Of a DNA stretch of 64,000 nt, positions 1 through 64,000 are shown in pieces. Both the position numbers and the translations under genes were made by a program. The notes under the pieces are model-generated. The model made no database searches. It was given only the letters and a program-made list of their open reading frames with translations, and had not been told where the DNA came from. The stretch comes from Bdellovibrionota bacterium (lineage in GTDB: Bacteria; Bdellovibrionota_C; UBA2361; JAAYZI01), in assembly GCA_050950765.1 (NCBI GenBank), contig JBMNIF010000003.1:256001-320000 (forward strand), given 5' to 3'. Within the stretch, counting starts at the first letter, position 1; every line of letters starts with the position of its first letter.

Positions 1-275
1 CTTAGGGCTAACTTATCGGATTTAAATGATAATCTACTATTATCTTGGACTGCCACAGCCTCTCGAAAACGGTGGGAGAAGTTCGCATTTGCTCCACAGT
101 TAAATTATGTGTTTAATCAAGCTCTGAGCGAAGCGATGGATAAGTTACTTATTCCCCTGCGCAGTATTGGAAAATCTCCTTTGCGCAGGTAGTATATTAG
201 GTAGTTGTTTTATCTATTTAAAAAGTTTTGAAACTATCAGGTTGTTTCCCTACAATTAGGGTTTGGACAGAGATT

Positions 276-54877: not shown

Positions 54878-54954
54878 GGTGGCTGTAGTTCAATTGGTAG
54901 AGCACTGGATTGTGGTTCCAGGCGTTGTGGGTTCGAGCCCCATCAGCCACCCCA
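54878..54954 (+). tRNA. tRNA-His (GUG)
   Basis: Acceptor stem GTGGCTG/CAGCCAC, G-1 at 54878, C73 discriminator, anticodon arm CTGGA-TTGTGGT-TCCAG, TTCGA T-loop, encoded CCA. Confidence 0.97.
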
Positions 54955-55187
54955 TTCATCACCCCGCAGGATGCACTGGATGCAGGTTTGTGATTCTCTC
55001 TTAAAAATCCCCGCAAAAAGCAGGTAATTCGTTAGTCCTGTTTGTGTTTTTGGGTGTCGGCTGTGCATCCACCGAATTCTTGAATCCTCATTAAATTTCA
55101 GGAAATTTCAGAAATTGGATGCAAAATGGCTGCATGTGCATCAGGGGTGTTTTCTAAAAGTGGGTGCAGAGGATGCAAGCGGGGGGA

Positions 55188-55736
55188 TTAACCCTTTCCA
55201 CCCAGTTTTTGCGGTAGATTCTCTCTTAGCAGCTCAAACTCTTCAGGGGTGAAGGTAAGCTCGATTTCAACCCCTTCTTGTTTACCAGCGTCAGCTTCAA
55301 GAATCTTAGCTTTGAGACTGCTCTCAATCTCTTTCTGTTTTACTGACGGTTTCTCGCGCTCAGGCGCTTTAAGGCGAGTATAAACCGACCAGATCGCATC
55401 AAGCGGTATAGAGTCTGGGTTATTGCGAATTTCAGGGGGTAAAACAGACCAGAATTCTTCATTGTCGGGGTAGACCGTTATGAAGTTGGTAATGACCTTC
55501 TTAATGCGGTTTTTATCAAGGTGCGGTCGCTCTTCGTCTCTGGTCAGCTCAAAAAAGAAGTATTGAACAAGCTGATCTATGACCCTGGCAGAGGGTACTA
55601 CATCAGGGTGGTTCACTAGCCTCGATAGAGCGTTCTTATCGCACCCGCTACCCGCTGAAACCTCTTTCAGGGTGTATTTTCGACCCTTCTGAGCATGTAA
55701 ATCATCTAATAATTTCAATATGTTAAGGCGAATCAT
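55188..55736 (-). CDS. XRE/Cro-C1-type HTH repressor
   Basis: YTLKEVSAGSGCDKNALSRLVN...PSARVIDQL N-terminal HTH; divergent from xis-int. Confidence 0.8.
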   Translation of the reverse strand: MIRLNILKLLDDLHAQKGRKYTLKEVSAGSGCDKNALSRLVNHPDVVPSARVIDQLVQYFFFELTRDEERPHLDKNRIKKVITNFITVYPDNEEFWSVLPPEIRNNPDSIPLDAIWSVYTRLKAPEREKPSVKQKEIESSLKAKILEADAGKQEGVEIELTFTPEEFELLRENLPQKLGGKG

Positions 55737-55765: not shown

Positions 55766-55870
55766 TTGACAACAACCTATAAATGAGATATTATAATAAT
55801 AGAGGTTAAAACAAAGCAAATGAGAATAACCTCTAATATAATGATAATATCATAGAACATGATTTGTCAA
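55766..55870. promoter_or_regulatory. Face-to-face promoter pair with central inverted repeat
   Basis: Plus strand TTGACA-N17-TATTAT (55766-55794); minus strand TTGACA-N18-TATCAT (55870-55841); TAGAGGTTA/TAACCTCTA at 55800-55808 and 55827-55835. Confidence 0.7.
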
Positions 55871-55895
55871 GGGTTAAAAACTGAGGTTGTTGAAG

Positions 55896-56072
55896 ATGGA
55901 AACAAAAGAACTGCTGACCGCACAAGAAGCCGCAGACATGCTCTCAATGAGCGTCAATGCGTTTCGCATCTTTGTTCACCGCTACGGTAACAAGATTAAG
56001 CGGGTCAAGCTCGGTAAGCGAAAGACCTACTACCTGCGAGACAGCATTCTCGCTCTTCTCGAAGTGGTCTGA
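55896..56072 (+). CDS. xis: Excisionase-like HTH_17 protein
   Basis: LLTAQEAADMLSMS...KLGKRKTYY; GAGG RBS; directly upstream of the integrase. Confidence 0.8.
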   Translation: METKELLTAQEAADMLSMSVNAFRIFVHRYGNKIKRVKLGKRKTYYLRDSILALLEVV

Positions 56073-56119
56073 TCTTTCGCTGGTTTTTGTTCTGGTTTTT
56101 TTGAAGTGAGGTTTTGATT

Positions 56120-57196
56120 ATGGCAATTCGAGCGATTAAAAAAGATGGAAAGACAGTCGGGTATGATGTTCAGGTTTCAGCGCGTCATCCGCTGACCAAA
56201 GACCGCAAATTCTTACGACGAAGAGCAAAGAACAAATGGGAAGCAAGTCAGCTTGAGACTGCTCTGAAGCAAGAGCTTCACGACAAAATCAACGGCATTG
56301 AAATGCCGACCTGGAGTGAGCTGGTAGCTGCTTACGAAGCACACTGTCTCATTAATAAAGCAGCGTCAACCAGACACAACGAGCTTTCAATTCTCGGTCA
56401 TCATGCAAACCCGCATCTGCATCTGAAGTTCGTTGATAAGATCACCGAAGCAGATGTCCGCGAGATTCTCAGTCGGGTGGATTCTGACAAGTCTCTTAGT
56501 CTGAAGCACAACATCAGAAAGTGTTTAGCGAATGTTTTCAGCTACGCAATTGATTGCCGATACATTACTGACAACCCATGCCGAAGAGTAAAGCTACAGA
56601 AGATACCAGAACCAACGCTTAATATTCTTACCGACGAACAGATCAAGATCTTTCTGAAAAAAGCTGAAAGCTCTGGTGCTGAGTGGTTTCCAATTTGGGC
56701 GATTGCAATTTACACAGGTTTAAGAAGCGGCGAGCTGATTGCTCTTCGCTACCGACACATTGACCACAATGCTGGAAAACCAGTTATCAAAGTTCAAGAG
56801 AGCTGGACAAAGCAGGGTGGTTATAAACCCTATACCAAAAACAAGAGAGTAAGAACTGTACCAATCAATAAAGAGGTTCAGAGAATCATCGATCAGCTAA
56901 AAGCTGCTAATCCGAACGACTGCGGTCCTGATGACTTTGTCCTGCCGCAGATACCGACCTGGAAACAGGGTGATGCTGCTAAAGACCTGAGAGCATTTCT
57001 TCAGGGCTGCGGTCTGCCAGCAATAAGATTTCATGACCTTCGTGCTTGTTTCATTTCTCAGTGCTTGCTGCACGGCATTCAGCCGTCAGTGGTAATGAAA
57101 ATGGTCGGACATGGGGACATGAAAACCATGATGAGATATTGCCGACACACTGGTTCTGATGTGATTGGTCAGACTGATGTGTTGGATTTTTCGTGA
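56120..57196 (+). CDS. int: Tyrosine recombinase / phage-type integrase
   Basis: N-terminal arm-binding-like region, TGLRSGE (R), TK (K), FHDLR (HxxR), VGH, RY catalytic residues. Confidence 0.96.
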   Translation: MAIRAIKKDGKTVGYDVQVSARHPLTKDRKFLRRRAKNKWEASQLETALKQELHDKINGIEMPTWSELVAAYEAHCLINKAASTRHNELSILGHHANPHLHLKFVDKITEADVREILSRVDSDKSLSLKHNIRKCLANVFSYAIDCRYITDNPCRRVKLQKIPEPTLNILTDEQIKIFLKKAESSGAEWFPIWAIAIYTGLRSGELIALRYRHIDHNAGKPVIKVQESWTKQGGYKPYTKNKRVRTVPINKEVQRIIDQLKAANPNDCGPDDFVLPQIPTWKQGDAAKDLRAFLQGCGLPAIRFHDLRACFISQCLLHGIQPSVVMKMVGHGDMKTMMRYCRHTGSDVIGQTDVLDFS

Positions 57197-57214: not shown

Positions 57215-57526
57215 ATGATGAATACTAAATCTGATTTGAAATCATTTATTGAGCACATTGATTCCCAAGCTGACTGTGTTGTTGACGCTGTTTCTGTCGT
57301 TATAAATCTGTGCATTAAGGCGACCAAGGAAATCTATGCGATGAGCGACATAGAGATTGATGATAAGCAGTGTCTATTAATACTTCGAGCATCTGGTAGC
57401 GATGCTCATGGAATCATATATGCTTACAATCGTTTCAGTAATTATCTGTTGGCTTGTAGTAAAGAAGAGCTTTTGGCTCTCAAAGAGAAAGTTGAAAGCC
57501 TCTTTCCAACAATCGCTGAAGGCTAA
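57215..57526 (+). CDS. Hypothetical protein, possibly the 5' part of an interrupted longer gene
   Basis: GGAG RBS; the same frame stays open for about 57 codons after the TAA. Confidence 0.55.
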   Translation: MMNTKSDLKSFIEHIDSQADCVVDAVSVVINLCIKATKEIYAMSDIEIDDKQCLLILRASGSDAHGIIYAYNRFSNYLLACSKEELLALKEKVESLFPTIAEG

Positions 57527-57889
57527 TTCAAACAGATACGAACAGATTATTTTCGCAGATATCTTATGAAGATAGATGCACAAGAAGAAGTAATGTTCTT
57601 TTTGAGGGCACAAAGGAAAGAATGGGAAAAGACATTGAAGTTCTCTTTGTTTGCCTATCAAGAAGCGATTGGCTATGACGACGGTCGCTTTTTATGCTGA
57701 CTGTGATTGCGAGTGTGAATCTGGGGAGCTTTGTGATGAATGCGGCTTATACCATGACTGAGAAGAGTGCATTTCTTGAAAAATATTACTTATGTTTTGA
57801 ATGAAACAGGGGGAAATGACTGAGATCTCATGTCCCGTTTGTATAAATAATGTATAAAAACAAATTCATAAAAAAGGGGTATCCGTTCC

Positions 57890-58504
57890 ATGTCTGATGC
57901 ATATTCCGATCTGCCGGTTCGTGATTTCCTCGTTGAAGCCAAGAGACTTGATCCAAACGACACGCGGCTTGAAATATACGATGCTATTCAAGCCGCCGTG
58001 TCGAAAATGGTTCCATGGATCCATTTGACGATTACAACATCCACAGGCTCGGCGGATGAAGTCCTGATGGAAAGTCTTTGCCGCCGTTTTGCTCATCAGC
58101 TCCAACGGACAGTTCTCGGCATGAGAAAAAAAAGTAAGATTCCAATACTTACAGTTCTGGAAAAAAATCCAAACGGTGCATGGCATGCCCATTTCCTGAT
58201 TGGAAAAATTGAAGGCAGCCAGCGATTGCGAAATGCCACAACTTTTAAACATTACATTCAGAAACAACCATTGTCCGCCGTGGTCAAAATTTTAAATCGC
58301 CTGACTTATTATGACAGCAGCAGAAAAAAGCCGGGAAGAATTGGTAAATCTTATATTAATCCAGTGTATTTTAAGGAGGGCTTAGTTGATTACTTACTAA
58401 AGAAAAGCAAGCTCAATCTTCTTAATGTAGCATGGATGGCTTGCAATATCCGATTTCAAGTGTACGAGGTTTCCGTTTATCCGATATGCGAGAAACTTCC
58501 GTGA
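57890..58504 (+). CDS. HUH-superfamily endonuclease / rolling-circle Rep-like protein
   Basis: Motif I-like IHLTIT, motif II E.....WHAHFLI (HUH), motif III LVDYLLK (YxxK). Confidence 0.75.
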   Translation: MSDAYSDLPVRDFLVEAKRLDPNDTRLEIYDAIQAAVSKMVPWIHLTITTSTGSADEVLMESLCRRFAHQLQRTVLGMRKKSKIPILTVLEKNPNGAWHAHFLIGKIEGSQRLRNATTFKHYIQKQPLSAVVKILNRLTYYDSSRKKPGRIGKSYINPVYFKEGLVDYLLKKSKLNLLNVAWMACNIRFQVYEVSVYPICEKLP

Positions 58505-58724
58505 TCTTGCTGGTGTAACCGTCATATCCAACATTTAGCACGGCTCATTATTCCATAGAACTTGAGTGAGAGGGTTGGAGAATGGATTTTTTTAAAGGTG
58601 ACGAGTCCCTTGTTGGACTCGTTTTTTTTGCGTCTGGGTATTTGGGTAGATAAGAAGATAAACAGTATAGCCAACAGAATGATCCGCTAAATACAGATGA
58701 GATACATAGTGCCAACAAAGGTAA

Positions 58725-58970
58725 ATGACGATGCAAAAAGCCAAATCAAATTACACACAGATCAGATTATTACTTCCAGAGGAATGGGTGCCAGAGCTTG
58801 ATAATCTTGCAGCCTCCAGATTCTTAAGCCGTTTGGGTCTCATACGCTTTTATCTCAGAGCCGGACTGGATGAAGATCTATCACAATTTGCCGAGCACCT
58901 GCGACTTAAAGACGAGCAAAAGCGGATTCATGCACATATCGCCGAACAATTGGAAGATCGGGAGTGGTAA
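58725..58970 (+). CDS. Ribbon-helix-helix (CopG-like) DNA-binding protein
   Basis: TQIRLLLPEEWVPELDNLA...SRLGLIR..L pattern. Confidence 0.7.
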   Translation: MTMQKAKSNYTQIRLLLPEEWVPELDNLAASRFLSRLGLIRFYLRAGLDEDLSQFAEHLRLKDEQKRIHAHIAEQLEDREW

Positions 58971-58972
58971 AG

Positions 58973-59170
58973 ATGTCCAAAAGAATTTCCAAATCAGATG
59001 CACTTAGAATACTCAATGCCGCAGATGCTCTTGAGGTAATTCAAGAGACAGTAGATCGGAAGGAAACTTCAGCAGCTAAAAAATCCAAACTCAACCGTTT
59101 TGCCGCCGATGTCCAAAAACAAATTAATGAAGAGAGAGATGTGATCCTGATATCCATAAAGGTAAAGTAG
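58973..59170 (+). CDS. Hypothetical small protein
   Basis: GGAG RBS; tightly packed between the RHH gene and the next ORF. Confidence 0.6.
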   Translation: MSKRISKSDALRILNAADALEVIQETVDRKETSAAKKSKLNRFAADVQKQINEERDVILISIKVK

Positions 59171-59171
59171 T

Positions 59172-59531
59172 ATGAAAAGCCTCCAGCAGTATATCACAGA
59201 TTTAGAAAATAACGGCGCCGGCGTCATTCAAGAAAGCATTGTCGGCAAGGGGTATGCGATTTCACAGAACCGGGCGCATGGTGCTAGCAAAAATAAACTA
59301 CAGAGTATCGCTTCCAAAATTCAGTCCGAAGCCAGAAAAGGAATATCAGAAGATGATCCTGAAAAGCGCCAGCAGATTGTCTTCACTCTCTTTATTGAAC
59401 TCGGAAACGCGCTTAAAGTTTTGGCAGAGATGTCCCGTAATACAATAAATGTCAGCACTGCCGGAGTGCTTGACCAGGAGAGCATTAAGAAAGCCCTTGA
59501 GCCCATCACCCGGAAAGCCACACGCCGCTAA
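59172..59531 (+). CDS. Hypothetical protein with a T4 internal-protein-like N-terminus
   Basis: Begins MKSLQQYITDLE; helical body; 1 nt after the upstream stop. Confidence 0.7.
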   Translation: MKSLQQYITDLENNGAGVIQESIVGKGYAISQNRAHGASKNKLQSIASKIQSEARKGISEDDPEKRQQIVFTLFIELGNALKVLAEMSRNTINVSTAGVLDQESIKKALEPITRKATRR

Positions 59532-59715: not shown

Positions 59716-59922
59716 ATGAAAGCCAAAGACACAGCCGAGCAGTGGGTGTCGGTCGAGCAGATTGCAGAGCATTTGGGCGTTAAGTCTTTCACCATCTACA
59801 AGTGGCTTGAGCGCAAGAATATGCCGGCGCATAAAGTCGGAAGACTCTGGCGCTTTAAGATTTCTGAGGTTGATCAGTGGGTTCGGGATGGTGGAGCTGC
59901 TGAAGATAAGGAAAGGGATTAA
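59716..59922 (+). CDS. HTH_17 (excisionase-family) DNA-binding protein heading the R-M operon
   Basis: WVSVEQIAEHLGV...TIYKW.....MPAHKVGRLWRFK.SEVDQWV. Confidence 0.9.
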   Translation: MKAKDTAEQWVSVEQIAEHLGVKSFTIYKWLERKNMPAHKVGRLWRFKISEVDQWVRDGGAAEDKERD

Positions 59923-59924
59923 GT

Positions 59925-62072
59925 ATGGATTATGGGCAACACTCTTCAATTGTAAGTTTCATCTGGAACATAGCGGATGATGTTTTGCGGGATGTTTATG
60001 TCCGAGGCAAATATAGAGATGTCATTTTGCCGATGACGGTTCTAAGGCGTCTGGATGCGGTGCTTGAGCCCACCAAGCAAGCTGTCCTTGACATGAAAAA
60101 AAAGCTCGATGATGCCAAAATTGCAAATCAAGAAGCCGCATTGCAGGAAGCTGCTGGTCAGGCATTTTATAATACTTCACAGTTTTCCCTTCGTGACCTG
60201 AAGGCGAGAGCAACACAGCAGAAACTTAAATCAGATTTTGAAGATTACCTGGACGGTTTCTCCTCTAATGTCCAAGACATTGTTGAAAACTTTGAATTCA
60301 GAGCACAGCTAACAAAACTTTCCAAAGCTGATGCACTTGGATCGCTGGTTGAAAAGTTCACTGATTCCTCTATTAATCTCAGTCCGAATCCAGTCTTAAA
60401 TTCTGACGGAACTGTTCGCCTGCCAGGGCTTGATAATCATGCCATGGGGACGGTTTTTGAAGAGTTAATTCGAAAATTCAATGAAGAGAACAACGAAGAA
60501 GCCGGAGAGCACTTTACGCCGCGAGATGTTGTAAAGCTTATGGCTGATATGATCTTTTTGCCGGTTGCAAAGGAAATTCGATCTGGAACTTATCTTGTGT
60601 ATGACGGTGCCTGCGGAACTGGCGGAATGCTGACAGTTGCCGAAGAGCGGCTAAAAGAACTGGCAAAAGAGCATAAGAAGGATGTCTCGATTCACCTCTT
60701 TGGACAGGAGATCAACGCTGAAACCTATGCCATCTGTAAAGCCGATCTGCTCCTAAAAGGTGAAGGTGTGGCTGCTGATAACATTATCGGCGGCAGTGAT
60801 AAGTCAACTCTTTCCAACGATGCCTTTCCTTCAAAAGAATTTGACTTCATGCTTTCAAATCCACCTTATGGGAAAAGCTGGAAAACTGACCTTGAACGAA
60901 TGGGCGGCAAAAAAGATATCCGTGATGCACGCTTTGTTATTGAGCATAACGGTGATCCCGAATTCAATATGCTGACCCGCTCAAGCGATGGGCAGTTGAT
61001 GTTTCTGGTAAACATGCTTTCTAAGATGAAGCACAAGACGCCGCTTGGAAGTAGAATCGCGGAAGTCCATAACGGTTCATCCCTGTTTACAGGGGATGCC
61101 GGTCAGGGTGAAAGTAATATCCGCCGCTGGATTCTTGAAAATGACTGGCTTGAGGCTATTGTGGCTCTGCCGCTTAATATCTTTTATAACACCGGCATTG
61201 CCACCTACATCTGGATCTTAAGCAATAAGAAAGCCCCGGAGCGTAAAGGCAAAGTCCAGCTAATTGACGCCACAAACTGGTTTAAGGCGCTTAGAAAGAA
61301 TCTTGGAAAGAAAAACTGCGAACTCGGTGCGGAGGACATTCAGCGAATTAACGATGTATTCTTAGGCTTTAAAGAAACGGAAGAATCGAAGATCTTTAGA
61401 AACGAGGATTTTGGCTACTGGAAAGTTACAGTCGAAAGACCTCTTCGGCTTAGTGTATCGCTTGATGAGGAAGCTCTTTCTGCTTTCGAAAAAGCCTGCG
61501 CCGATGCAAAAGAGAAGAAACTATATGAACTGATTGCCGGGGTTGCTAAGAATCTTGGCGCAGGTCCGCATAAGAATTACAATCTCTTTCTTGACGAAGT
61601 TCAGGAAGCCGCGAAAGCGGCAGACATTAAACTTTCCGCTAAAGCAATAAAGCTCATTCAAACTTCTCTTGCCGTAAAAGACGAGACAGCCGAGCCGGTA
61701 ATCAAGAAGATTCACAAAGCAGGCAAAGCAGAGCCAAATCCGCTGGAGGGTCGCTTCGGGATAAAGATCGCTGGAAAGGATACGGTTGTTGAGTATGAGC
61801 CTGACAGTGATCTGCGTGATACAGAGCAGGTGCCTTTACTTGAAGAGGGTGGAATTGAAGCATTTATCAAACGAGAAGTGCTGCCGCATGTTCCCGACGC
61901 CTGGGTTGATATTGACGGTAAAAAGATCGGTTATGAGATCAATTTCAATCGGTATTTTTATAAGCCACAGAAGTTGAGGACACTGGAGGAGATTAAGGCG
62001 GATATTTTTGCTCTTGAGCGGGAGACGGAAGGTTTGTTGCAGCAAATTGTAGGGGAGGCATCAGCGTCATGA
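59925..62072 (+). CDS. hsdM: Type I R-M methyltransferase subunit
   Basis: FIWNIAD, GEHFTPRDVV, YDGACGTGGML, GQEIN, NPPYG, FYNTGI. Confidence 0.96.
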   Translation: MDYGQHSSIVSFIWNIADDVLRDVYVRGKYRDVILPMTVLRRLDAVLEPTKQAVLDMKKKLDDAKIANQEAALQEAAGQAFYNTSQFSLRDLKARATQQKLKSDFEDYLDGFSSNVQDIVENFEFRAQLTKLSKADALGSLVEKFTDSSINLSPNPVLNSDGTVRLPGLDNHAMGTVFEELIRKFNEENNEEAGEHFTPRDVVKLMADMIFLPVAKEIRSGTYLVYDGACGTGGMLTVAEERLKELAKEHKKDVSIHLFGQEINAETYAICKADLLLKGEGVAADNIIGGSDKSTLSNDAFPSKEFDFMLSNPPYGKSWKTDLERMGGKKDIRDARFVIEHNGDPEFNMLTRSSDGQLMFLVNMLSKMKHKTPLGSRIAEVHNGSSLFTGDAGQGESNIRRWILENDWLEAIVALPLNIFYNTGIATYIWILSNKKAPERKGKVQLIDATNWFKALRKNLGKKNCELGAEDIQRINDVFLGFKETEESKIFRNEDFGYWKVTVERPLRLSVSLDEEALSAFEKACADAKEKKLYELIAGVAKNLGAGPHKNYNLFLDEVQEAAKAADIKLSAKAIKLIQTSLAVKDETAEPVIKKIHKAGKAEPNPLEGRFGIKIAGKDTVVEYEPDSDLRDTEQVPLLEEGGIEAFIKREVLPHVPDAWVDIDGKKIGYEINFNRYFYKPQKLRTLEEIKADIFALERETEGLLQQIVGEASAS

Positions 62073-63445
62073 AACTAGCGCCTTATTCCCGTTATTCGCA
62101 GGTTGGTCTTCCGTGGCTGAAGCAGCTTCCAGAAGGATGGGAGCTTCGGCGAGCCAAGTTTGTTTTTGATGCAATCGATATTCGTTCAGAGACAGGAGAA
62201 GAGGAAATCTTAACTGTATCTTCAAGCGATGGAGTGGTCCCGCGTAGTCAGAAAAATGTTACAATGTTTATGGCAGAGTCATATGTGGGGCACAAGCTAT
62301 GCTGGGCGGGTGATTTGGTGATTAACAGCCTTTGGGCTTGGGCTAAGGGTTTAGGCTTTGCTCGACAACACGGGCTTGTAAGCTCAGCATATGGCGTCTA
62401 TCGCTTGAAAAAGCCGTATCAGGCATATGAAAACTTCCTTCATTATGCTTTGCGTTCTATGGCATATGACTGGGAGTTCCGTGTGCGTTCTAAAGGGATT
62501 TGGACATCGCGTCTCCAATTAACGGACGATTCTTTCTTTAATATTCCAATTATTCTCCCCCCTCCCGACGAACAACAAAAAATCGTCAACTTCATCCAGC
62601 AGCAAGACCGCCGCATTCGGTGGTTTATTCGGAATAAGCGGAGGTTGATTGAGTTGTTGCGGGAAAGAAGGAGAGGTGTTTGCAGCAAGGCGACTGGTAA
62701 AGGGGTAAATTCGGAAGCCCCCATGATACAGAGCGATTTTCCGTGGATTGGAGAGGTGCCAGCCCACTGGAAGATTACACGAGTAAAGAATGAGTTTTTG
62801 TGTTTGAACAATAAGAGAGTGCCGTTAAGTGCAACCGTTCGAGGCGAAATGACATCCCGTAATTACGACTATTACGGAGCCTCCGGCGTTATTGATAAAG
62901 TTGATGATTATCTCTTTGACGATGAACTGTTACTTGTCGCAGAAGATGGCGCCAATCTTGTTCTGAGAAATTTGCCTTTGGCAATAATTGCCAAGGGGAA
63001 ATTTTGGGTTAACAATCATGCTCATATTCTAAAACCCAAGGATGGGAACCTTGAATACCTAGCACTTGTATTGGAGCGATTGAACTATCTGCCATGGATT
63101 ACAGGTGCTGCCCAGCCAAAGCTAACCAAAGATCGACTACTTGCTATTCCTATCGCCCTTCCTGATTCGAGAGAGCAAATGTTGATAATGGATAGCATCA
63201 AAGGAGAACTAGAACCGTTAGATGCCAGCATAAGTCAAGCCAACTCCGAGTTAAAGCTAATGGGTGAATACCGCTCCCGCCTCATCGCCGATTCCGTTAC
63301 CGGCAAAATAGATCTTAGAAGTGTATCCCTCGAAGCTGCGGCAGACGAAATCGAAGAAGACCTGACCGAGATCTCAGAAAACGGCTTTGAGGATATGCCG
63401 GAAGACGAGGCGGAGCTTGAAGAGGAGACTGCTTATGCCAACTGA
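62069..63445 (+). CDS. hsdS: Type I R-M specificity subunit
   Basis: Two TRDs with conserved LPEGW / VPAHW and PPPDEQQKI / PDSREQ spacers; acidic tail; ATGA overlap with hsdM. Confidence 0.94.
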   Translation: MKLAPYSRYSQVGLPWLKQLPEGWELRRAKFVFDAIDIRSETGEEEILTVSSSDGVVPRSQKNVTMFMAESYVGHKLCWAGDLVINSLWAWAKGLGFARQHGLVSSAYGVYRLKKPYQAYENFLHYALRSMAYDWEFRVRSKGIWTSRLQLTDDSFFNIPIILPPPDEQQKIVNFIQQQDRRIRWFIRNKRRLIELLRERRRGVCSKATGKGVNSEAPMIQSDFPWIGEVPAHWKITRVKNEFLCLNNKRVPLSATVRGEMTSRNYDYYGASGVIDKVDDYLFDDELLLVAEDGANLVLRNLPLAIIAKGKFWVNNHAHILKPKDGNLEYLALVLERLNYLPWITGAAQPKLTKDRLLAIPIALPDSREQMLIMDSIKGELEPLDASISQANSELKLMGEYRSRLIADSVTGKIDLRSVSLEAAADEIEEDLTEISENGFEDMPEDEAELEEETAYAN

Positions 63446-64000
63446 TACCACCGAAAAAGGTCTTGAATCAATGATAGTAGCCTCACTGGTATCAGAGGCT
63501 GGCTATATCCAGGGTTCGCCAGAGGATTATGACCGTGACCATGCTGTAGACCTGAAGCAGCTTTTAGCTTTCATCGAAGACACCCAGCCGGAAAAGTTTG
63601 CTCAACTTTCTATCTCAACCGATTCACCTGAACGCCAGAAATTCTTAAATCGTTTGCAAGGGGAAGTTGCTAAGCGCGGAGTTATTGATCTCCTGCGAAA
63701 CGGAATCAAGCACGGTCCGATTTCTCTTGATCTTTATTATGGATTACCAACTCCGGGTAATGCAAAGGCTGAAGAGCGGTTCAGGGCGAACCGTTTCAGT
63801 GTTACCCGCCAGCTCTGTTACAGTAAAGACGAATCCAGACTAGCTCTGGACATGGCAATTTTTATCAATGGCTTGCCGTTTGCCACCTTTGAGCTAAAAA
63901 ACAGCCTTACCAAGCAAACCGTCGAAGATGCTGTGCAGCAGTATAGAAGAGACCGCGACCCGAAAGAGCTTATCTTTCAGTTTGGGCGCTGTGCTGTGCA
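63435..64000 (+). CDS. hsdR: Type I R-M restriction subunit (5' part; truncated by window end, absent from ORF track)
   Basis: Manual translation MPTDTTEKGLE...VTRQL.YS...LDMAIFINGLPFATFELKN...AVQQY; PD-(D/E)xK nuclease motif; frame open to the end. Confidence 0.93.
   Translation, partial: MPTDTTEKGLESMIVASLVSEAGYIQGSPEDYDRDHAVDLKQLLAFIEDTQPEKFAQLSISTDSPERQKFLNRLQGEVAKRGVIDLLRNGIKHGPISLDLYYGLPTPGNAKAEERFRANRFSVTRQLCYSKDESRLALDMAIFINGLPFATFELKNSLTKQTVEDAVQQYRRDRDPKELIFQFGRCAV

Follow-up and report, generated by a model that had tools for sequence, protein, structure and literature searches.

We analyzed a 64,000-nucleotide (nt) stretch of a Bdellovibrionota bacterium genome (contig JBMNIF010000003.1, positions 256,001 to 320,000; hereafter the window) and found that its region at 57.8–59.5 kb belongs to a family of small integrative islands, of which it forms the conserved core; the islands are carried by metagenome-assembled genomes (MAGs) labelled Bdellovibrionota or Bdellovibrionales. 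The core contains two promoter-like TAAATA boxes, P1 and P2. P1 precedes a gene for a small HUH endonuclease, and P2 precedes a three-gene operon for a ribbon-helix-helix-like (RHH-like) protein, a 65-amino-acid (aa) protein and a third, 119-aa protein whose family shares an N-terminal tag. Sequence comparison solidly establishes that the module is conserved, that it has a promoter class of its own and that it encodes a small HUH endonuclease and a third protein with a tag. We propose, with a probability of roughly 0.4, that it may be a replication or interference module of a ~13.7-kb defence island and would be triggered by the late sigma factor of an infecting phage.

Related loci were collected through three of the module proteins: 13 via the 119-aa protein, one via the HUH protein and 10 metagenome loci via the RHH-like protein. 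A search of 1.84 billion representatives with the 119-aa protein gave 36 relatives at E ≤ 0.001, and 18 of 124 genomes from its phylum contained it; the matching hosts were labelled Bdellovibrionota, Bdellovibrionales or delta proteobacterium MAGs. Homologues occur in similar integrase islands, one of the two settings that an earlier sequence-only reading of this DNA had named for them, and there the three-gene operon stays together as a unit. The cargo found beside the module varies, and the accompanying recombinase is of four kinds: a tRNA-His integrase, a DUF6538 integrase, a serine resolvase or a tyrosine recombinase of ~197 aa.

The boxes are conserved among the related islands. In the window, the earlier reading had placed TATAAATA at 57842–57849, 40 nt upstream of the HUH gene, and CTAAATA at 58687–58693, about 30 nt upstream of the operon; both positions are exact, the latter lying 31 nt before ATG 58725 and 37 nt before ATG 58731. 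Counts for the operon refer to 23 orientable loci, after removal of L049, which duplicates L048, and of the fragment L037. In 21 of them, the start of the RHH-like gene was preceded at 30–48 nt by an xxTAAATA box, in the form TATAAATA in 15 loci, CTAAATA in three, and AATAAATA, CATAAATA and GATAAATA in one each. Ten loci had a second box ahead of a gene upstream of the operon. In five of these, the gene encodes a 204- to 258-aa HUH protein and the box lies 39–40 nt before its start, as it does in L001, L033, L045 and L053; in the other five, its product belongs to a second HUH subfamily, is 155–176 aa long and has the motifs HYH and YxxK. The TAAATA core does not vary among the 31 boxes, each of its bases reaching 2.0 bits; the values are 0.7 bits for position 1 and 1.3 bits for position 2, and close to 0 in the flanks. 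Position 2 is A in 24 boxes and C in seven, never G or T, giving NATAAATA (24) or NCTAAATA (7). An A(T/A)ACA element, common to P1 and P2, follows 9–13 nt downstream. The expectation that the upstream motif would be conserved among homologues was borne out by this invariant core, which comes without a −35 element.

We considered whether an AT-rich 8-mer and a common MK... N-terminus could have met by chance without shared function. What favors this is the lack of enrichment of TATAAATA: the window has 5 copies against 4.55 ± 1.93 expected, with 51 of 100 shuffles reaching 5, and the genome has 252 copies in 2.64 Mb (40% G+C), fewer than the median count of 353 among 8-mers of equal composition. 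Given these counts, the motif in this window alone is no more than chance, as the sequence-only reading had itself cautioned. The box, with its unchanging core, has nevertheless kept its position before the operon in 21 of 23 loci and before HUH genes in 10, among islands whose proteins are only 40–60% identical. These conservation data contradict a chance origin of the boxes, and we give it next to no weight.

The boxes do not resemble housekeeping promoters. At the −35 distance of 16–18 nt, the best TTGACA match for the 31 boxes was 2–4 of 6, the same as at random positions; when textbook −10 rules were applied to them, no sigma-70 register kept both A−11 and T−7 in all variants, and none of the 31 had a TG element. 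The host does not use the box generally: only four intergenic copies among the 252 lie 20–60 nt before an open reading frame (ORF), and the three besides P1 precede ordinary-looking genes. Elsewhere, the same islands use canonical promoters. The intergenic region between the regulator and the xis-int genes contains TTGACA-16..18-TAxxxT matches of 10–11 out of 12 on at least one strand in all eight loci with this integrase, and on the rightward (xis-int) strand the match is 10–11 out of 12 in six loci, 9 in L045 and none in L027. The promoter of the cargo genes has the −35 sequence TTGAC at a spacing of 17 nt in four of five loci (WIN, the window, and L031, L032 and L033), the fifth, L028, having TTGAT. 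Judged by these sequences, the boxes are a promoter class different from the rest of the island and unlike that of the host.

This evidence counts against an account that involves no phage, in which the core would be an ordinary replication or mobilisation module of an integrative mobilizable element or an integrated rolling-circle replicon, and the host RNA polymerase would read P1 and P2 through an unusual −10, possibly with the help of a host- or module-encoded activator. We regard this account as the main rival, only slightly less probable than the phage-triggered reading, and weigh it further with the HUH protein below.

A known class of promoters has the same appearance. In T4-like phages, late promoters with the sequence TATAAATA are recognised by gp55 together with gp33 and the gp45 clamp; the island boxes have the same 8-mer and the same tolerated variants (the first base is free, and CTAAATA occurs as it does in Aeh1), and they too lack a −35 and stand a few tens of nt before start codons. 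Passages of a published account (PMC1524935) place the T4 late consensus TATAAATA at −13 to −6, describe the T at −13 as poorly conserved in several T4-like phages and give CTAAATA as the late promoter of phage Aeh1. The island forms NATAAATA and NCTAAATA match the published variants of T4-like late promoters, that of Aeh1 included. Unlike those promoters, the boxes reside in bacterial chromosomal islands, are separated from the ATG by ~10 nt more than in T4 and are followed by the conserved A(T/A)ACA. From the 8-nt match, the missing −35, the agreement in the variants that are tolerated and the contrast with the neighboring sigma-70 promoters, we tentatively suggest that a phage late sigma factor may read the boxes.

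The HUH Rep call of the earlier reading was supported both by the motifs LTITT, HAHFLIG and DYLLK and by a fold match. In the alignment of homologues, LTITT, H99-A-H101 with its hydrophobic neighbors and Y168-L-L-K171 were invariant in 11 of 11 sequences. The only Pfam match of the protein was REP_ORF2-G2P (PF23343), at 21.9 bits and thus below the gathering cut-off of 27.8; one homologue, P0007, has a precomputed REP_ORF2-G2P domain. The AlphaFold model, with a predicted local distance difference test score (pLDDT) of 78, aligned in VIA-align to Rep ORF119 of SIRV1 (2x3g) with Z 9.0 and a root-mean-square deviation of 2.4 Å over 105 of 116 residues, and this was the sole chain of 48,161 with Z ≥ 8. 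Foldseek found nothing at E ≤ 0.001 for the model, with four distinct HUH Rep proteins among the 30 best matches, and a PDB sequence-profile search with the HUH family gave nothing usable.

HUH enzymes cut short conserved sequences, often just upstream of their own gene, and the HUH gene of the window is flanked by two boxes in direct orientation. Both facts would suit an explanation in which the TATAAATA/CTAAATA boxes are nick sites, namely an origin or transfer origin (oriT) plus a termination site, instead of promoters. We find this highly improbable: in both units, the box keeps a fixed 30–48 nt from a start codon with a ribosome-binding site; it is retained in islands without a HUH gene in the P1 slot; it precedes two HUH subfamilies that show no BLASTP cross-match with the window HUH as the query; and, by eye, no conserved hairpin presents it.

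A small HUH Rep combined with an RHH-type regulator is the classic layout of rolling-circle plasmids such as pMV158 with its CopG-RepB pair, and the filamentous-phage satellites RS1 and TLC bear HUH proteins too; the G2P-type Rep family of inoviruses and plectroviruses is the one weakly matched in Pfam. This layout favors the ordinary module described above, as do its travels with four recombinase types, which would be expected of a self-contained replicon, and the conserved element at a fixed distance from the box in P1 and P2. According to that account, the RHH-like protein would be a copy-number regulator or autorepressor that binds the A(T/A)ACA repeats, the Rep or relaxosome would have the 65-aa and third-slot proteins as accessories, and the N-terminal helix of the third-slot protein would be a docking peptide for a partner within the module. 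The islands differ from pMV158-type replicons, RS1 and TLC in having the rep gene first and the RHH-like gene after it, in promoters that are not sigma-70-like and in the lack of plasmid homologues and of inovirus morphogenesis genes. Two further observations speak against an ordinary replicon: neither the HUH nor the RHH-like gene was found on any PLSDB plasmid, and in some islands the P1 slot is non-coding in place of a Rep gene, so that the module is not always a replicon.

Two conserved stretches of non-coding DNA were seen close to the boxes. In L032 (2767–3445), L046 (7373–7965) and L047 (482–1135), no HUH gene follows the first TATAAATA box, and the P1 slot instead holds 0.55–0.65 kb of conserved sequence with a mean column identity of 72%, which matched no Rfam family. 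Upstream of the P2 box by ~25–45 nt, L026, L027, L029, L031 and L044 share a hairpin-like sequence, TCCACATCGGC(G/A)(G/A)TGGA followed by a T-run. The loop is conserved as well, and the element may be more than a terminator.

Three of the module proteins have no family assignment. The first protein of the three-gene operon has an RHH-like sequence pattern, in line with the label of the earlier reading, but its profile support is weak: RHH_1 matched one of 12 members, at E 0.0012, and the protein hit the repressor family phrog_4738 at E 0.008 and, in a PDB profile search, a MazE-type antitoxin at E 0.36. The 119-aa protein was modeled with pLDDT 83.8; Foldseek searches of BFVD and the PDB returned generic helical hairpins, none at E ≤ 0.001, and no entry of the ESM Atlas reached 0.9. 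PDB sequence-profile searches with the 119-aa and RHH-like families produced nothing usable, a complex prediction for the 65-aa and 119-aa proteins scored 0.01, giving no verdict, and PADLOC had no model for the HUH protein or the three operon proteins.

The recurrent feature of the third protein is its N-terminus. In the window, the ORF starts MKSLQQYITDLE, as the sequence-only reading stated, and the I/L-x-E sites to which that reading pointed are present (IQE in both small ORFs and INE in the 65-aa ORF). The 53 distinct family members begin M(K/R)..[FL]x[EQD][FYVI].., often as MKRFSEF, MKSFKEF or MKTFNEY, and next come a variable linker and, immediately ahead of the conserved core, an [LI]xE; the N-terminal helix motif of the family is [KR]x[FL]x[EQ][FY]. 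A loose version of the pattern was matched by 18 of the 53 members versus 4 of 2504 host ORFs, one of the four being the 119-aa protein of the window itself, and a strict T4-like version by 6 of 53 versus 0 of 2504. Within the first 35 residues, [LI]xE occurs in 49 of 53. Homologues have therefore kept an N-terminus of the type MK-x-F/L-x-E/Q-F/Y followed by [LI]xE, and so passed the test that the earlier reading had set for the N-terminus. The third slot of L001, L051, L052 and L053 is occupied by a different protein of 62–77 aa, and hhalign aligned this family to the 119-aa family over 11 N-terminal residues only; unrelated bodies thus share one N-terminal tag.

The internal proteins of T4 (IPI, IPII and IPIII) have an arrangement that this recalls, with unrelated bodies behind a short tag of the type MK-x-F/Y-x-E-F and then [LI]xE, and IPI also has a linker before its ITE, as the third-slot proteins do. 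We take the cuts in T4 to fall at MKTYQEFIAE|A in IPII and IPIII and at MKTFKEFTSTTTPVSTITE|A in IPI. In the T4 sequence (AF158101), IPII and IPIII start MKTYQEFIAE and IPI starts MKTFKEFTSTTTPVSTITE, the beginnings being MKTFKEF... and MKTYQEFIAE. A published review of the T4 head (PMC3012670) describes the T4 internal proteins as diverse, with only the capsid-targeting sequence (CTS) conserved.

In the window, the 103-aa ORF 3' of the integrase (57215–57526) starts MMNTKSDLKSFIEHI and contains a piece, KSFIEHI, like the N-terminal tag of the third-slot proteins.

A number of findings weigh against the involvement of a phage. No homologues of the HUH, RHH-like and 119-aa proteins were found in 50,697 phage records or in IMG/VR contigs, and every family member with a readable context was part of a chromosomal island and not phage-encoded; the link to phages therefore comes from short motifs only. 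The distance from box to ATG is mostly 37–40 nt in the islands, versus 26–28 nt before seven late genes in our T4 control. The two most divergent variants, which are linked to a serine recombinase, lack the TAAATA core: L036 (7990–8250, minus strand) has CTATATAC at the homologous place, and L035 (8480–8900) has no box and a truncated RHH-like gene of which only the C-terminal half is kept. The two boxes of one island often differ, with TATAAATA beside CTAAATA in WIN, L025, L031 and L052, and such mixed pairs are a poor fit to tuning to a single phage sigma factor. Due to the A(T/A)ACA element shared by P1 and P2, a regulator encoded by the module could be the key reader of the boxes. The third-slot proteins also depart from the T4 internal proteins in several ways: they are not encoded by phages, their bodies are non-homologous, the tag is shifted by 2–5 basic residues in many members, and the N-terminus of the window copy, MKSLQQY, fails the strict T4 pattern and matches IPII and IPIII at 3 of the first 7 residues. 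BLASTP of the 119-aa protein against IPII gave E 0.29, and its body is unrelated to the T4 internal proteins. The conserved N-terminal helix could equally dock onto a partner within the module. Two of these findings, the absence of phage homologues and the frequent difference between the boxes of one island, also favor the ordinary replication or mobilisation module.

Co-variation of the two boxes of an island was considered as a sign of tuning to one phage and rejected, mixed pairs being common.

Genes of T4-like phages are scarce in the 124 genomes of the phylum. A gp55-type sigma (phrog_234) gave one weak match, inside a 564-aa ORF, and by this count the genomes appear to encode no sigma factor of that type, which counts in favor of the phage reading. 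T4-like capsid genes were found only on two short contigs in two of the 124 MAGs (the gp23 family in two MAGs and the prohead protease in one), which may be binning noise and also weighs against a phage trigger. The contigs, L041 (G115:C43:1-3691) and L042/L043 (G073:C285), carry Gp23, a prohead protease and a scaffold-like ORF, and L041 has TATAAATA ~40 nt before the scaffold-like ORF. They are weak evidence for such phages in these hosts.

If the boxes respond to a phage late sigma factor, the module could work as follows. P1 would drive the single-domain HUH endonuclease and P2 the RHH-like, 65-aa and third proteins. Neither would be read by the housekeeping sigma factor of the host; when a large virulent T4-like phage infects the cell, its gp55-type late sigma would read both, and the module would thus stay silent until late infection. 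The HUH protein would then nick the island and replicate or mobilise it, the RHH-like protein would limit P1 and P2 through the A(T/A)ACA repeats beside the boxes, and the two small operon proteins would act on the phage. The most speculative step, suggested by a short motif only, is that the third protein might enter phage heads by its N-terminal tag and be cut at [LI]xE; we think this unlikely. A similarly low probability attaches to the complete scheme, in which capsid-less defence islands would be wired to the T4-like late sigma through two gp55-type promoters of late infection, the HUH Rep would amplify or mobilise the island, and leader-bearing proteins would be loaded and cut in proheads, either to sabotage the phage or to ride in it. 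The T4-late-sigma island as first conceived in the sequence-only reading thus survived in part: the motif and the N-terminus are conserved and the HUH protein is supported, but no phage homologues were found, the window N-terminus agrees poorly with that of T4 and the protein body is unrelated.

The features of the island are listed in Table 1.

Table 1. Features of the island in and around the window; positions are window coordinates unless stated otherwise.
Feature	Position	Strand	Basis and remarks
tRNA-His	54879..54954	+	ARAGORN; ~140 nt left of the island
Direct repeat, putative left flank	55093..55134	+	Repeat search, family D4
182-aa regulator candidate, weak helix-turn-helix (HTH)	55188..55736	-	Pfam HTH_3 E 0.11; divergent from xis-int
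Two face-to-face sigma-70-type promoters	55766..55870	.	TTGACA-17-TATTAT on +, TTGACA-18-TATCAT on -
61-aa excisionase-like HTH_17 protein	55887..56072	+	Pfam HTH_17 25.8 bits vs cut-off 27; PHROG excisionase E 2e-4
Tyrosine integrase	56114..57196	+	Pfam Phage_integrase 61.6 bits; phrog_1 E 1.7e-52
Two small ORFs, 103 aa and 44 aa, differing between islands	57215..57700	+	Family searches without a match
P1 box TATAAATA	57842..57849	+	40 nt before HUH ATG 57890; without −35
204-aa HUH endonuclease (Rep or relaxase-like)	57890..58504	+	Motifs LTITT, HAHFLIG, DYLLK
Intrinsic terminator 3' of the HUH gene	58600..58633	+	9-bp stem, then T-run; separates the two transcription units
P2 box GCTAAATA, then ...GATACAT	58686..58693	+	Before the three-gene operon; without −35
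79-aa RHH-like protein (81 aa from ATG 58725)	58731..58970	+	Homologue alignment; weak profile support for RHH fold
65-aa protein, conserved C-terminus ERDVxLIAIKVK	58973..59170	+	Alignment; no family match, no relative of known function
119-aa protein	59172..59531	+	Alignment; N-terminal helix (residues 4-13), linker, IQE, long helical hairpin
MAD1-like excisionase-family HTH protein, first in cargo	59716..59922	+	NCBIfam MADS1 69.1 bits vs cut-off 80; PADLOC mad1; promoter with TTGAC −35 ahead
Type I restriction-modification cargo: hsdM, hsdS, start of hsdR	59925..64000	+	Family scans; runs past the window end
770-aa AAA_13 / PADLOC PDC-S06 protein	L003:12409-14721 (= window 66409-68721, outside the window)		Directly after hsdR

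The window copy of the island is ~13.7 kb long and adjoins tRNA-His, its cargo consisting of a type I restriction-modification system and a PrrC-related ATPase. The ATPase is the 770-aa AAA_13 protein, which resembles the anticodon nuclease PrrC in its C-terminal part (E 1.3e-15) and contains a CxxC pair; PrrC-type proteins beside type I restriction-modification systems are a known anti-T4 defence. The 182-aa regulator candidate is kept in the eight islands having the integrase of the window. The left flanking repeat (42 nt) has a 79% identical partner at a spacing of 13,661 nt, at L003 14754-14795, which is 68754–68795 in window coordinates and outside the window; this imperfect repeat would bound the island at 55093 and 68795. 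No exact repeat of the tRNA-His 3' end of at least 15 nt was found within 120 kb downstream, and the tRNA itself is therefore probably not the attachment (att) core.

No capsid or packaging gene was recognised among the island ORFs scanned; with an integrase, a replication gene of its own and no capsid genes, the island shares these traits with phage satellites. The DNA of the window is present in anaerobic-digester and bioreactor metagenomes; no RNA run was found to contain the locus. In contigs of four runs aligned over 20 kb of the locus, the island was integrated, one contig spanning L003 1-14927, and these contigs, which drop rare forms, gave no sign of excision.

Just right of the island, a 196-bp tandem duplication (L003:14848-15200) covers the 3' end of a LOG-family gene, and one metagenome contig has it as a single copy. 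Beyond the LOG gene (L003:16165-19074) are a 98-aa methyltransferase fragment and a second type I hsdM of 836 aa, which suggests that a second defence locus adjoins the island.

Known phage satellites (P4, PICI/SaPI, PLE and PICMI) resemble the islands in being small, integrase-bearing elements without capsid genes and in having a repressor-type xis-int switch and defence cargo. A further parallel is the Psid promoter of P4, which is wired to Ogr of P2: here too, a separate operon could be wired to the late transcription of a helper. The islands differ from these satellites in that the replication gene encodes a small HUH endonuclease and not a primase-helicase and in that no packaging or capsid-remodelling gene is recognisable; moreover, the promoter itself would recognise the signal of the helper, a sigma factor.

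If P1 and P2 are indeed read by a phage late sigma factor, a chromosomal element would sense infection through the promoter code of the invader itself, and no earlier island or satellite would have been tied to T4-like virulent phages in this way; a full-text literature search, with subscription journals outside its coverage, found no published case of a satellite or island with T4-like late promoters. Even under the ordinary reading, the two TAAATA promoters without a −35, the small HUH endonuclease, the RHH-like and 65-aa proteins and the tagged third protein make up a new conserved module, which is common to defence islands of Bdellovibrionota-labelled bacteria and has a promoter class unlike that of its host.

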